Virus record (IMG/VR): IMGVR_UViG_2585427789_000018
Direction: 5' to 3' (one strand)
Length of the DNA stretch: 5,080 nucleotides
From: a virus
Taxonomy: Duplodnaviria > Heunggongvirae > Uroviricota > Caudoviricetes
Position numbers and translations under genes: made by a program. Shown here in pieces: positions 1 through 5,080 of this stretch; positions within the stretch are counted from its first letter, which is position 1, and every line of letters starts with the position of its first letter. Below the pieces are notes generated by a model. It saw only the letters and a list, made by a program, of their open reading frames with translations. It was not told the origin of the DNA and did no database searches.

Positions 1-137
1 AAATAAAACTCCAGAATCAAAATAATACAGAAACAAAAACAAAAACAGGCATGTGCTCACATTACCGGAAACGGCAGTGACAACTGCGTATCACCCCGGT
101 GAGACGCAGGCAGGCTTTGCCACGGAATATCCTGTGA

Positions 138-506
138 AGTGCAGCCATAACGTTTAACAGTGATTTTGTCGAAACTCTCCAGCGTCGAGAAGGAGAGACT
201 GCATTCCGGGTTGTTGCACTGGCAGAGTTTCCAGCGGACAGTTCCGGTATCGTTCGCTGCGCGACTGGTGCGGGTGCGTGTGCTCGCACCACAAAAAGGA
301 CACGGAAAAGACACGACGAAGCGGCCAGAAGGGAAGCTACGCCACAACCACAGGCTGCTGCGTTTTCCGGTGAGATACATGTACATCTGCACAACGTCAA
401 CACACAGAATCCGCGCGAACTGGCAAAACTGGTTGGTGAGGCCGTCCGCGAAGAGATGCGCAGACAGGCGCGTACAGGCATGAACAGCTTCCGCGACAGG
501 GACTAA
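138..506 (+). pseudogene. 3' fragment of a tail-module gene (probably P2 gpT-like tape-measure C-terminus); no start codon
   Basis: Frame open from the stop at 135-137 to TAA at 504-506, ending 13 nt before the gpU-like start. The translation ends ...PRELAKLVGEAVREEMRRQARTGMNSFRDRD and contains no initiator Met apart from the last few codons. A second frame is open from 26 to 154, so an indel near 138-154 may have broken a longer gene. Assignment to tape measure rests on P2 synteny (T precedes U), not on recognised sequence. Confidence 0.35.
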
Positions 507-1760: not shown

Positions 1761-2302
1761 ACAAAAAAACAGGGGCAAATCCCCCTGTTTCCTGCTACGT
1801 CAGCGGGGCGCTGTCTGTTGTTGTACCGCCTGCCGTCAGGGGCGGCAAATTCCGCACGGTGGAGACGTTGCAGGTGCAGGGGCTGGAATTTGAAGAGCAG
1901 GCCCGTGTGATTGAGCAGTTCACGCACAAATACAACGTCCAGCACATTGGTATCGACGTGACCGGCGGTAACGGTGAGGCAGTGTACCAGATAGTGCGGC
2001 GGTTCTGGCCTGCCGCCGTGCCGTACACGTTCACGCTGGCATCCAAACGCGCGCTTGTGCTGAAGATGCTGCAGATTATTCGTGCGGGGCGCTGGGAGTA
2101 TGACCGGGGCGAACGTGAGCTGGTCAGGGCATTCAACGCTGTGCGCAAGGCAAAAACGGCGGGCGGGGCAATAACGTATGAAACAGACCGCACACGCGGC
2201 GTAAACCACGGCGACCTCGCGTGGGCAACCATGCTTGCCGTCATTAACGAGCCGCTGGGCGATGAGGACGGTGCAACAGGAATGCGGGTGATTGAGTTCT
2301 GA
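1736..2302 (+). pseudogene. 5'-truncated large terminase subunit (P2 gpP-like), nuclease-domain fragment
   Basis: The 188-aa ORF contains HIGIDVTGGNGEAVYQIV and NHGDLAWATMLAVINEP near its C-terminus, which fits the RNase H-like nuclease domain of large terminases. It ends TGATG-overlapped with the portal start. Its first ~18 codons come from the gpU' remnant and terminator, so terminase homology begins near 1795; about 400 N-terminal residues (ATPase domain) are missing. Confidence 0.6.
1763..1790. terminator. Hairpin terminator homologous to the one after gpU (A7, hairpin, TTT)
   Basis: Stem CAGGGG (1770-1775) pairs with CCCCTG (1782-1787) around a 6-nt loop, flanked by A7 (1763-1769) and TTT (1788-1790). 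Confidence 0.5.
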
Positions 2303-3351
2303 TGAAAAAACAAAAACGAAAATATTCGCGCCGCGATGACGGCGTGGCGCTGGCAGAGGCACTGCGCCGCCAGCCGTCGTTAAGCGCCTTCTCGTTCGAC
2401 GGCCCTTACGATGCGCACGCACTCGACCTGCTGGATAACGCATACTGCCTGAGTAACGGCAGATACTACGAAACGCCCGTTGACTGGTACGGACTGGCGC
2501 GGGCATCCCGGCAGACCTCGTGGCACCAGTCGGCGCTGTACTTCAAGCGGAATGCCATACTGGGCTGCTTCATTCCGCACCGGCTGCTCTCCCGGCAGGC
2601 GTTCTCCGCCTTTGCGCTGGACTGGTTTGTCTTCGGGAATGCGTTTCTTGAACTGCGCACCAACAGGCTGGGCGGAAAACTGGAACTACGGCACGCGCTG
2701 GCAAAATACGTCCGTCGTGGTGTTGAGCCGGATGTGTACTGGTTTGTGCAGACGGGGGAGCAGGACCACGAGTTCCGTCAGGGGCGCGTCTGCCATGTGC
2801 TGAACCCCGACATCAACCAGGAGATGTACGGAATGCCGGAATATCTCGGTGGCCTGTTGTCTGCCAGTCTGTCGCACTCGGCAGATCGCTTCCGCAAACT
2901 CTACTATGACAACGGTTCACATGCAGGCTGCATCATTTACGTGGGGGCAGCACAGGTTGATCGCGAAAGTATGCAGGCTCTCGAAAGAGCGTTGCAGGGC
3001 GCAAGAGGCGGTGGGGCATTCAAGAACCTGCTACTCCAGGCACCGAACGGCGGGAAGGACGGTGTGCAAATCCTGCCATTCCAGCAGATCACCGCCCGGG
3101 ATGAGTTCATGAACGTCAAGGCGGCCTCCCGTGATGATGTGCTGGCCGCTCACCGTGTACCACCACAACTGATGGGCGCAATGCCCAGCGGGCAGGGTTC
3201 TTTTGGTGATGTGGAGAAGGCGGCCAGAGTGTTTGCGATCAACGAACTGATGCCGGTGATGGAGGCGATGAAGCACGTTAATGACTGGCTGGGCGAAGAG
3301 GTGATCCGTTTTAACCCTTACGCACTGCTGGATACCCCGCCCATATCCTGA
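2302..3351 (+). CDS. Phage portal protein, P2 gpQ-like
   Basis: 349-aa ORF, close to the ~344 aa of P2 Q. It is translationally coupled to the upstream terminase fragment through TGATG at 2300-2304, the expected terminase-then-portal order. Codon usage is consistent and all other frames are closed. Confidence 0.8.
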   Translation: MKKQKRKYSRRDDGVALAEALRRQPSLSAFSFDGPYDAHALDLLDNAYCLSNGRYYETPVDWYGLARASRQTSWHQSALYFKRNAILGCFIPHRLLSRQAFSAFALDWFVFGNAFLELRTNRLGGKLELRHALAKYVRRGVEPDVYWFVQTGEQDHEFRQGRVCHVLNPDINQEMYGMPEYLGGLLSASLSHSADRFRKLYYDNGSHAGCIIYVGAAQVDRESMQALERALQGARGGGAFKNLLLQAPNGGKDGVQILPFQQITARDEFMNVKAASRDDVLAAHRVPPQLMGAMPSGQGSFGDVEKAARVFAINELMPVMEAMKHVNDWLGEEVIRFNPYALLDTPPIS

Positions 3352-3512: not shown

Positions 3513-3720
3513 CCATACTTCACCACACAACCAATAAAACATCGCGTCAGGGGCACAATCAGCAGCATTTCTGGCGATTTCTGAGGATGCTTTCAGACCC
3601 CAAATTGCGGGCTGTTCCCCCGGCACCTGCGCGCAACAAAAACGCGTTTTTTTGTGCATGCACGGATCCCTGACGGATCCAGCTGCCACGCGGGCCGGAA
3701 GGGTAAAAAGTCGTTCAAAA

Positions 3721-3750
3721 AAATTGTGCAAATTTGTGCACTTTTGTGCA
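3721..3750 (+). repeat. Three tandem 10-bp repeats with core TTGTGCA
   Basis: AAATTGTGCA, AATTTGTGCA and CTTTTGTGCA have cores at 3724-3730, 3734-3740 and 3744-3750, at an exact 10-bp period. A fourth core lies at 3652-3658. Confidence 0.5.
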
Positions 3751-3769: not shown

Positions 3770-3798
3770 TTGACCGTAGCTTGCCTTTGATGTAGTTT
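3770..3798 (+). promoter_or_regulatory. Candidate promoter (TTGACC-N17-TAGTTT) upstream of an inverted repeat and a strong RBS
   Basis: The -35-like TTGACC is at 3770-3775 and the -10-like TAGTTT at 3793-3798. It is followed by the inverted repeat AACCAC-AAAAC-GTGGTT (3811-3827) and the SD GAGGGGG (3839-3845). The -10 is weak. Confidence 0.25.
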
Positions 3799-3850
3799 AT
3801 GCATCACAAAAACCACAAAACGTGGTTATGATTTCTATGAGGGGGTTGAT

Positions 3851-3886
3851 ATGAAAAAAATGCATGATGAATTTGATGGTTTCTAA
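3851..3886 (+). CDS. Hypothetical 11-codon ORF (MKKMHDEFDGF) with a strong RBS
   Basis: ATG at 3851 lies 5 nt after GAGGGGG, and TAA at 3884-3886. It sits 37 bp before the IS186 end. It could be a leader peptide or the decayed start of a gene. Confidence 0.15.
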   Translation: MKKMHDEFDGF

Positions 3887-3922
3887 GCTACGTTGACCTC
3901 TAATGAGGCGGGGATTTGCTCC

Positions 3923-5080
3923 CATAAGCGCTAACTTAAGGGTTGAACCATCTGAAGAATGCGACGCCTCGGTGCCTCGTTAAGACGATGCCTCGCGTTC
4001 TTCAATTGCGTTTTGTAGGCTGTCAGGGATACTGTCCCACGAATGGCCACCTGTAAGCTCCAGATGACCATTTTTGTTATTCTCCACAACGAGTTAGTTC
4101 TTCTTTTCGGATCCGGCACTTCTGGGGGGGAAATCCAGCGATGGCTGGATTATGTCGTCAATTAAAAATGCGGCGAGTAGATTAGCAAATATCCACGCTT
4201 TCGCGAGTTCAGGTTCCTTTGCACGCAAAGCATCCAGGTGCAGCAAACTTTTGAGCCGCTTAAAAGCCAGTTCAATTTGCCATCGCAGACGGTAACAATC
4301 AGCCACTTGCTCTGCTGAATATTCATCTTCCGGTAATGATGTTAGCAATAGCACATGGCCCGCTGCTTCCAGCGTTTCCGCCTGAACTACTCGTCCTTTT
4401 CGACGATTCTCGCTGAGCAGTCGGGTTTTACTGATTAATGCTTTTTCGGGAGGAAGTGATACGGCAATGAGACGTGCCGGAAAGGGAGCTCCGGCTTTTT
4501 TATTACCTGAATTGCCTATCATTACAGTGGTTTCACCGTTCTTACCGCAATCCAGCCCGCGCAGAAAACCCATCATGTCAAAGCGCATTCCTTCTGCAGT
4601 TAACCAGCGCAATCCTCGCCAGTGAACCCGGACGATATAATCAGCTTCTCCAAAAGCAAGTGAGCGGATACATTCGGGACGCGAACCGAATCCCCGGTCA
4701 GCAATGCGTATCTCGTCTGCCGTTTGCGCAAATCGGTCCAGCCGTTCAGCGTCTCTGCTGTCGGTTAGCTCAAAATCAGTGAACTGACAGGTATGAGGAT
4801 CATATCCCATATGTAGTCGCCATTCAGCGCTGCCGCCCCCGGGCGCACTGATTGCTGTTCCATCGACAAGACGCAATCTCTTTCCGCTTGTACAACCCGT
4901 AACTGCGGCGCGTACAGCAAGTGTTTGTGCGGCAAGTATGCCAAACCAGTCGGCGGCATTCCGCAGCCGCTTCAGGAGAGCCACGTCAGATAATGTTGCA
5001 ACGTCATGGAGCTGAGCCCATGCAGTGACTTCACGTAATGACATCCCCCCGGGGCCGTAAGCCAGCCCCAGACGTAGCAG
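3923..5080 (-). mobile_element. IS186 (IS4 family), right-hand ~1.16 kb; the element continues past the window end
   Basis: The terminus at 3923 reads CATAAGCGCTAACTTAAGGGTTG, which matches my recollection of the IS186 terminal inverted repeat. The internal ORF matches IS186 transposase. The flanking target is G-rich (CGGGGATTTGCTCC), as IS186 prefers. Confidence 0.85.
4094..5080 (-). CDS. insL: IS186 transposase (InsL-like, IS4 family), partial; the N-terminal ~54 aa lie beyond the window
   Basis: The minus-strand frame is open from the window edge to the stop at 4094-4096. The translation (...GPGGMSLREVTAWAQLHDVATLSDVALLKRLRNAADWFG...IDDIIQPSLDFPPRSAGSEKKN) matches the IS186 transposase as I remember it. 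Confidence 0.85.
   Translation of the reverse strand: MLRLGLAYGPGGMSLREVTAWAQLHDVATLSDVALLKRLRNAADWFGILAAQTLAVRAAVTGCTSGKRLRLVDGTAISAPGGGSAEWRLHMGYDPHTCQFTDFELTDSRDAERLDRFAQTADEIRIADRGFGSRPECIRSLAFGEADYIVRVHWRGLRWLTAEGMRFDMMGFLRGLDCGKNGETTVMIGNSGNKKAGAPFPARLIAVSLPPEKALISKTRLLSENRRKGRVVQAETLEAAGHVLLLTSLPEDEYSAEQVADCYRLRWQIELAFKRLKSLLHLDALRAKEPELAKAWIFANLLAAFLIDDIIQPSLDFPPRSAGSEKKN

Follow-up and report, generated by a model that had tools for sequence, protein, structure and literature searches.

A micro-ORF conserved as a peptide precedes an intrinsic terminator and a DUF4760 gene in the cos-proximal cargo of P2-like prophages

In the mcc system, the 7-codon gene mccA is followed by an intrinsic terminator and then by mccB, and an abundant short transcript is accompanied by a minor read-through transcript (Zukher et al. 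2014, PMC4231749). P2-like prophages carry a cos-proximal hotspot between gpA and gpQ, as defined by Rousset et al. 2022 (PMC9122126). We analyzed positions 3770-3922 of a DNA stretch of 5,080 nucleotides (nt) from a tailed-phage record (IMG/VR IMGVR_UViG_2585427789_000018), referred to below as the window. This region carries an open reading frame (ORF) of only 11 codons, MKKMHDEFDGF, which we call the micro-ORF, and is followed by the insertion element IS186. The original prediction, made from the window only, had described a promoter, an operator-like repeat and a strong ribosome-binding site that yield only an 11-codon ORF, and had suggested that accessory cargo or its regulatory leader was interrupted by IS186. 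The sequence elements on which it was built (TTGACC-N17-TAGTTT, the inverted repeat, GAGGGGG, the ATG at 3851, the ORF, a second TTGACC and a pair of inverted 8-mers) were all found in place, and the reading of several of them has changed.

Positions 3770-3922 make up the 5' part of a mobile cassette of two genes, which is cargo of the cos-proximal hotspot of P2/P88-like prophages. Sequence comparison establishes the anatomy of this cassette, the conservation of the micro-ORF at the protein level and that of the terminator, the linkage to DUF4760, and the IS186 junctions.

A micro-ORF linked to DUF4760 genes

In the IS-free alleles of EC958 and EC0026B, the latter carrying the same degraded prophage as the window, the locus continues as ...TAATGAGGCGGGGATTTGCTCCCCGCCTTTTTTATGGATGAAATAGGATG. 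The gene for a DUF4760 protein of 165 amino acids (aa; Pfam E = 1.8e-34) starts 21 bases after the T-run of an intrinsic terminator and is followed, in E. coli, by the gene for a 280-aa membrane protein. The uninterrupted allele thus holds genes and not just non-coding DNA. In strain AST19, which carries IS186, the same two genes lie directly beyond the element, so that the suggestion of an interrupted cargo with its remainder past IS186 has been borne out. The 280-aa protein is a multi-pass membrane protein (phrog_12528; positions 6879-7721 of locus L002, beyond the window), which joins DUF4760 in the E. coli version only.

The peptide belongs to a family with the pattern M-x(1-5)-[FYH]-D-E-[FY]-[DE]-G-F, and a search with a degenerate pattern returned variants with synonymous differences in unrelated flanks. 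As an unbiased test, loci were fetched solely by similarity to the DUF4760 protein. The micro-ORF was present at all 12 genome loci obtained in this way, which represent 12 species; the genera from the genome collection are Xenorhabdus, Kluyvera, Enterobacter, Dryocola, Klebsiella, Atlantibacter, Franconibacter, and Pantoea. Viral loci with enough upstream sequence also carry it, one of them being cut by IS186 and two (L079, L080) having DEFEGF. In these loci the ORF has 9-12 codons and ends with D-E-[FY]-D-G-F-stop, except for one locus that has lost this stop and extends to 15 codons. The layout consists of a Shine-Dalgarno sequence, the ORF, a GC hairpin with a T-run (in most cases about 18 nt past the stop), and the DUF4760 start 10-25 nt further on. 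In all relatives the ATG is preceded, at a distance of 5-9 nt, by a Shine-Dalgarno sequence of the GGAG, GAGG or GGGG type. Altogether, the cassette occurs in 12 or more enterobacterial species, which belong to 9 named genera, and also in intact phages.

Two variants of the cassette were seen along the way. In Franconibacter pulveris (L033, ~3902-3949) the stop codon reads TAC, which extends the ORF by four codons (MKKAFDEFDGFYIMK) to an end 9 nt before the hairpin; this extension is a natural variant which blocks a free C-terminal Phe. Plasmid pMB17626_3 (L005, 5000-5170) and six plasmids of 46-49 kb from PLSDB carry a complete module of promoter, terminator and micro-ORF (MKKRYDEFDGF) that shares 80% identity with that of EC958. 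On these members of a phage-plasmid family (~47 kb) the module stands alone, with a small lipoprotein-like ORF on one side and the convergent parA region on the other, and no DUF4760 gene comes after it.

The pattern of nucleotide changes was analyzed for 31 distinct leaders. The final six codons are variable at each of their third positions, compared to none of the six first positions and one of the six second positions (Phe to Tyr). By contrast, every column varies in the 12 nt that precede the motif and in the 18 nt that follow the stop. As variation is located at third codon positions while all flanking columns vary, this is a protein-coding signature, and by this comparative evidence the micro-ORF is under purifying selection at the protein level. 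What had been described as only an 11-codon ORF is no leftover of a truncated gene but a complete unit with a conservation of its own. The ORF is missing from the annotation of all RefSeq and GenBank records that were inspected. ORFs of about 10 codons escape genome annotation, and the present case provides a clean comparative proof of protein-level selection. The peptide, with its 11 residues, is acidic and hydrophilic and thus is not of the hydrophobic, membrane-inserting kind that characterizes hok/ldr/ibs-like type I toxins.

A pairing of micro-ORF and DUF4760 was also found far outside this clade. A profile search yielded 2,560 DUF4760 cluster representatives (50% identity), and each of the 11 distant loci with an inspectable upstream region has an upstream micro-ORF of 8-18 codons with a Shine-Dalgarno sequence. 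The motif D/G-G-[F/W/L/V] occurs in 10 of these 11, the exception being MRDGDDGN which ends with D-G-N. A hairpin with a U-rich tail follows MVNLILDEFDGF, MRDTDGGL, MREVIDGL, MKDVTGGF, MRDGDDGN, MIFSYALLCARDDFPGL, and MGHNKYLDGFDW. The stop codon of MRTEISDPKRRDGVEDPI is about 45 nt before the DUF4760 start, and no hairpin was identified between the two. Three others (MKLFKDGWDD, MKNVVLMDGWDWN, and MIYYDGWDGND, from L092, L094 and L096) abut or overlap the DUF4760 start codon and have no terminator. Such terminator-less micro-ORFs at three loci are hard to reconcile with a role purely in terminator attenuation. The peptide motif shifts along with the DUF4760 clade. The neighbours of the distant DUF4760 loci are of the accessory type (Abi_2, holins, a CI-like repressor, Bro-N).

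Within DUF4760, the invariant residues include Arg45, Arg68, Lys115, and Arg137; among solved structures, the EP domain of plant EDS1/PAD4/SAG101 matches it best. For the 280-aa protein, PADLOC reports a weak match, over a membrane region, to Csx27, an accessory membrane protein of type VI-B CRISPR systems (E = 1.1e-5).

Promoter, terminator and leader RNA

The putative sigma-70 promoter matches the consensus at five of six positions in the -35 hexamer and at three of six in the -10 hexamer, with a spacer of 17 bp. A simple sigma-70 scanner places TTGACC-N17-TAGTTT below its threshold, because the -10 hexamer has only these three matches. We regard this putative promoter as conserved, since TTGACn-N17-TA(A/G)(T/A)TT, with N18 in the version from Citrobacter, scores highest in 25 of 39 distinct related upstream regions; in 23 of these 25 regions it is found 51-73 nt upstream of the micro-ORF start. 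Transcription would be expected to start near position 3805. The promoter which the scanner does call, ATCACA-N18-TATGAT at 3803-3832, was rejected as it is not conserved in the relatives.

Many related cassettes (L027, L029, L030, L049-L064) have a perfect inverted repeat, ATTACC-N5-GGTAAT, at the equivalent of window positions 3776-3798. It fills the promoter spacer, overlaps with the -10 hexamer, and is degenerate in the window (CTTGCC...ATGTAG). This repeat may be the operator for a regulator.

The repeat originally described as operator-like is another one, at 3811-3827. It is located downstream of the promoter, and the relatives have stem-loops of unrelated sequence at the same place (e.g. 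ATGACTA/TAGTCAT, GACGACA/TGTCGTC, TTCACG/CGTGAA), so that it is better read as a 5' stem-loop of the RNA than as an operator. The pair of inverted 8-mers, CGTAGCTT at 3775-3782 and AAGCTACG at 3885-3892, had been thought to bracket the unit. The pair does exist but is attributed to chance, because 44% of shuffled sequences contain one or more pairs of this kind. In the nearest IS-free allele the pair is disrupted, with CGTGGCTT in its place, and the left copy is inside the promoter spacer, upstream of any transcript.

In the IS-free alleles, the target of IS186 is an intrinsic terminator, GAGGCGGGGATTTGCTCCCCGCC-T6, which the scanner calls as GAGGCGGGGATTTGCTCCCCGCCTT-TTTT. Its stem, GAGGCGGGGA-TTTGC-TCCCCGCCTT followed by TTTT, has 10 pairs, 7 of them G-C, as is typical for an intrinsic terminator. 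The terminator is kept in the relatives, with compensatory stem variants such as GGCGGAGAGTCTATCTCCGCC and GGCGGGTTGGTTGCCCGCC. The distance from the stop codon to the hairpin is 18-22 nt in ten terminator-bearing examples; L095 (~70 nt) and L033 (9 nt) deviate from this.

When the uninterrupted leader is folded, it reaches -39 kcal/mol (z = -2.8). The fold is composed of the 5' stem-loop, a long-range helix in which the Shine-Dalgarno region pairs with the box GTTGACCTC behind the stop, a hairpin at the stop codon, and the terminator. The stop-codon hairpin, in which 92% of cells are paired, shows covariation of the synonymous third positions of Asp and Gly with bases behind the stop (CG to UA swaps; permutation p = 0.001). 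In the window, the box GTTGACCTCT, which is complementary to the Shine-Dalgarno (anti-SD), pairs with GGGGGUUGAU at 3841-3850 in the minimum-free-energy structure. The duplex between Shine-Dalgarno and anti-SD has -9 to -12 kcal/mol in 21 of 26 leaders, compared to -6.5 for shuffled sequences. No cognate-specific covariation was detected for it (p = 0.33), so that this helix is backed by conserved complementarity only. For the whole named structure, 83% of cells pair, compared to 43-61% when the partners are slid against each other. The box contains the second TTGACC. This hexamer is present as originally noted. A second promoter at this place was considered and rejected, as there is no -10 hexamer at 16-18 bp and as the relatives keep the box in the form GTTRACCTC, a complement of the Shine-Dalgarno region.

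A search of the uninterrupted locus against Rfam 15 gave only sub-threshold matches, the best being SorX with 19.3 bits (gathering threshold 46.6 bits), which covers only the terminator hairpin. Minimum-free-energy and centroid folds of 31 leaders contain no antiterminator and keep the terminator, with the pairing of Shine-Dalgarno and anti-SD as their one long-range helix. The terminator's sole possible competitor is the pairing of CCUC with GAGG, which has 4 base pairs. The features of the region are listed in Table 1.

Table 1. Positions of the cassette features, of IS186 and of the cos-flanking repeats in the window.
Feature	Position	Strand	Remarks
TTGTGCA, three copies, ~10 bp spacing	3724-3750	+	conserved core flanking cos in P88-like phages ends here
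Putative sigma-70 promoter	3770-3798	+	-35 TTGACC 3770-3775; 17-bp spacer; -10 TAGTTT 3793-3798
Stem-loop AACCAC-AAAAC-GTGGTT	3811-3827	+	near 5' end of predicted transcript; in minimum-free-energy fold
Shine-Dalgarno GAGGGGG	3839-3845	+	5 bases before the ATG at 3851
Micro-ORF MKKMHDEFDGF	3851-3886	+	11 codons, TAA stop; conserved peptide family
Hairpin U-GGU-U / A-GCU-A	3877-3890	+	last codon and stop in loop; RNAalifold
Anti-SD box GTTGACCTCT	3892-3901	+	contains second TTGACC; complementary to Shine-Dalgarno region
Terminator, left part	3905-3922	+	5' arm GAGGCGGGGA, loop TTTGC, 3 nt of 3' arm; rest severed by IS186
Target-site duplication, left copy GGATTTGCTCC	3912-3922	.	11 bp
IS186 (annotated IS4-like element, IS421 family)	3923-5080	-	transposase on minus strand; ends ~181 bp past the window
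IS186 terminal inverted repeat CATAAGCGCTAACTTAAGGGTTG	3923-3945		23 bp; starts 36 bp after the micro-ORF stop

Partner peptide or cis-acting leader

We see about an even chance that the micro-ORF is a gene for a partner of DUF4760 and that the terminator sets the ratio between the two, with a layout like that of mccA. The order of the cassette is putative promoter, 5' stem-loop, a micro-gene predicted to be strongly initiated, intrinsic terminator, and the gene for a membrane-anchored DUF4760 protein. Most transcripts would end at the terminator, giving a short RNA of about 130 nt that encodes the peptide, and a minority would read through and express DUF4760. In this way the terminator would set a high peptide-to-protein ratio. 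The peptide itself would be a partner of DUF4760 (a ligand, regulator or antidote) beyond any role as a cis-acting leader. We infer transcription from the promoter, translation of the micro-ORF, partial read-through of the terminator, a trans-acting role for the peptide, and a role of the cassette in defence or exclusion.

This model is favoured because the motif is conserved as amino acids throughout the family and changes with the DUF4760 clade. Further reasons are that the micro-ORF persists where there is no terminator and that the phage-plasmid module, which lacks DUF4760, keeps the ORF intact. Family-wide co-occurrence and the clade-linked motif change indirectly suggest that DUF4760 may use the peptide as a substrate or partner.

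Several points weigh against this model. The -10 hexamer is weak, and transcription, translation and the peptide are predicted from sequence, as are terminator efficiency and read-through. Peptides of 8-12 residues are usually short-lived. The stop-to-hairpin spacing, the pairing of Shine-Dalgarno and anti-SD, and the covarying hairpin at the stop also fit a cis-regulation of ORF translation. PADLOC did not find a significant defence match in the cargo, the best for DUF4760 being PDC-S35 (E = 0.014). Literature searches on DUF4760 and on the motif DEFDGF returned nothing relevant, with a single paper that mentions DUF4760 incidentally. Finally, the plasmid module could be a recent remnant, as having at most one change in 21 nt at 20% divergence corresponds to p ~0.06.

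The best-surviving alternative, which we consider possible but clearly less probable, is that the micro-ORF is a cis-acting leader or attenuator, perhaps with arrest of the nascent chain at ...DGF-stop, that controls passage through the terminator or translation of DUF4760, with the peptide having no function after its release. Every member of the Enterobacterales clade indeed has a terminator that separates the micro-ORF from DUF4760, and its distance from the stop is 18-22 nt in the ten examples measured, with L095 and L033 deviating. The pairing of the Shine-Dalgarno region with a conserved box right after the stop and the covarying hairpin with the stop codon in its loop point in the same direction. 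An invariant C-terminal run right before the stop is typical of arrest peptides such as TnaC. However, no antiterminator pairing was found, and in the minimum-free-energy structure the terminator forms with or without the Shine-Dalgarno helix. A ribosome at the stop codon is estimated to end ~8-10 nt short of the hairpin. The peptide lacks a regulatory codon run, its conserved part being a mixed motif of acidic and aromatic residues and Gly. L092, L094 and L096 keep the micro-ORF and the motif type without having a terminator. A motif that changes together with the DUF4760 clade would be expected for a protein partner, not for an arrest motif directed at the ribosome.

It is unlikely that the promoter-terminator unit of ~130 nt is a base-pairing small RNA, or an antitoxin RNA resembling those of type III systems, with the ORF being incidental. 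The unit is compact: it has a promoter of its own and a hairpin near its 5' end, closes with a Rho-independent terminator and U tail, and folds with a z-score of -2.8. The ToxIN antitoxin-toxin pair also has a terminator before the partner gene. However, variation is confined to third codon positions and the amino acid motif is kept across unrelated nucleotide contexts and across genera. There is neither a significant Rfam match nor are there tandem repeats.

Even less probable is that the peptide mimics the acidic, Phe-terminated tail of SSB and acts on partners in DNA metabolism, or as a decoy or sensor ligand that is read by DUF4760. The end D-E-F-D-G-F-COOH resembles the tails of E. coli SSB (...DFDDDIPF) and T7 gp2.5 (...DEDGDF), and the invariant Arg45, Arg68, Lys115, and Arg137 of DUF4760 would suit an acidic ligand. 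For T7 gp2.5, the terminal Phe is essential according to a study cited in PMC9917605 (reference 23). This is a resemblance only; distant members end with ...DGWDD, ...DGWDWN, or ...DGL instead of Phe, and nothing ties DUF4760 to DNA metabolism. That the ORF and its signals arose by chance in a non-coding spacer of a decaying prophage is hardly credible: heavy degradation of the window's prophage and the weakness of the -10 hexamer would fit, but occurrence of the cassette across species, genera and intact phages contradicts this explanation.

If the micro-ORF indeed encodes a partner of DUF4760, a more far-reaching interpretation can be put forward, which is rather doubtful at present. Micropeptides with a D-G-aromatic motif and the membrane-anchored DUF4760 protein could be an undescribed two-component system for exclusion or abortive infection carried by phages, in which the peptide, made in excess due to the terminator, restrains the effector. 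Loss of the peptide supply, or displacement of the peptide during infection, would then release the effector, and with its 8-18 residues the peptide would be smaller than any other genetically encoded regulator or antidote known. Regardless of this, a micro-ORF has been tied to a whole Pfam family which is found in phage accessory and defence hotspots. DUF4760 thereby becomes experimentally approachable as a pair of peptide and protein, with or without a terminator.

IS186, the prophage hotspot and described systems

The consensus target of IS186 is reportedly GGGG(N6-7)CCCC. The 11-bp duplication at our locus lies in GGGG-ATTTGCT-CCCC, and insertion into the terminator hairpin fits the GGGG-N7-CCCC target type of IS186. 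The element adjoins the micro-ORF as had been noted, at a distance of 36 bp from the stop codon and not 37 bp; rather than lying downstream of the expression signal, it is inserted within the intrinsic terminator which ends the micro-ORF transcript. Three complete E. coli genomes match the IS186 junction region exactly (AST19, AST205, E100341). In AST19 the left junction leads from ...GGATTTGCTCC into CATAAGCG and the right junction from CGCTTATG into GGATTTGCTCCCCGCC..., and the element has 1339 bp. Inspection of the other IS186 end, as proposed originally, confirmed the target-site duplication: a right copy of GGATTTGCTCC is present beyond it in AST19 and H1827/12, and the uninterrupted allele has a single copy.

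The same site is occupied by IS186 in opposite orientation in H1827/12 and MDR_56. An ST131 strain and a viral contig carry IS186 at this site in the same orientation as the window but on another allele. As the same site has been hit in both orientations and in different alleles, the terminator hairpin is a recurrent target of IS186. The 11-bp target is occupied in L001, L019, L022, L081, and L099, which implies at least three independent events, and EC0026B has the identical degraded prophage with an empty site. With repeated hits of IS186 into the hairpin and isogenic strains with an empty site (AST19 versus EC0026B), this represents a natural on/off polymorphism.

Since IS186 destroys the terminator, the micro-ORF transcript would also lose its 3' hairpin. 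The window allele retains the promoter, the micro-ORF and half of the terminator, and its transcription would proceed into IS186 in antisense. The genes for DUF4760 and the 280-aa protein would be displaced by 1.3 kb from the promoter and the micro-gene.

The window is derived from a degraded prophage of the P88/Xuanwuvirus type (P2-like family Peduoviridae) and contains a tail gene, a truncated terminase gene, and the portal gene Q at 2302-3351. A core that extends to ~3751 is common to 1146 E. coli genomes and P88-like phages; then homology breaks. Variable cargo starts at ~3752, and its genes differ among phages as far as parR/parM and the replication genes. The locus is thus found between portal Q/cos and replication gene A, with a content that varies among related prophages. 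The core ends with the TTGTGCA repeats, and a further site of this type is at 3652-3658. In P2, three copies of ATGCA are found just before the old promoter, at a place equivalent to that of the TTGTGCA repeats in the window, and a Xenorhabdus prophage has a mixed version of both. These repeats may be a packaging site or a site for an architectural protein that is common to the cos regions of P2-like phages.

Some further observations concern the prophage. At 3607-3635, GGGCTGTTCCCCCGGCACC and the TGCGCGC behind it are similar to the 19-mer of the P2 cohesive end with its GCGCGC flank (12/19 by eye) and coincide with the onset of homology to most other P88-like prophages (query position 256). 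This may be the cos cleavage site, with an order relative to the GCGCGC flank that differs from P2. At the start of the window, an Ogr/Delta-type zinc-finger gene (57-314, minus strand) adjoins the 3' end of the tape-measure gene (315-505). The tail gene (520-978) is followed by an AT-rich stretch of ~650 bp (within 1000-1760) and, at ~1640-1790, by a second, degenerate copy of the tail-gene end with its terminator; then comes the terminase gene without its N-terminus. H1827/12 retains the sheath, tube and tape-measure genes which are deleted in the lineage of the window.

With respect to its position, the locus compares best to old/tin of P2, and the original prediction of an old/tin-type accessory locus across cos from Q was correct. 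The old-tin mRNA starts ~150 bp from cosR and is directed inward, which corresponds to the position and direction of the window promoter, and this is the hotspot of PMC9122126. Both loci are located between Q/cos and A, have a promoter ~150-180 bp from cos that is directed inward, and vary in content. They differ in that the cargo in the window is unrelated to old or tin and has no significant PADLOC family, and in that the old promoter region of P2 has neither a leader micro-ORF nor a terminator. The IS186 insertion resembles that affecting lon (SaiSree et al. 2001, cited in PMC3045373), being recurrent and independent of orientation, with a target of a G-run and a C-run and a duplication of ~10-11 bp. 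Here, however, a terminator hairpin in a prophage cassette is hit, and cargo is uncoupled from its promoter instead of lon expression being lost.

Attenuators (trp, his, pheA, pyrBI) and arrest leaders (tnaC, ermC) share with the cassette a short ORF before a terminator and a gene, and arrest peptides also have a conserved C-terminus. In contrast to these, the cassette has neither regulatory codon runs nor an antiterminator, its stop is too far away for direct occlusion, and some members linked to DUF4760 have no terminator at all. In type III toxin-antitoxin systems such as ToxIN, which also occur in mobile and defence contexts, a terminator between a small upstream product and a protein gene sets their ratio; in the cassette, however, selection acts on the upstream product at the peptide level, and this product is no repeat RNA.

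Micropeptide family and DUF4760 partner are undescribed in the literature searched, while the architecture is of a known kind. It is closest to mccA-mccB, although DUF4760 has no similarity to the MccB-type adenylating enzymes, the cassette has no export or immunity genes, and ribosome-induced termination via an upstream antiterminator, which has been shown for mcc, is not predicted for it. What the two have in common is their layout, with a very short ORF (7 codons in mccA, 8-18 here), a strong ribosome-binding site, and a terminator in front of the partner gene.

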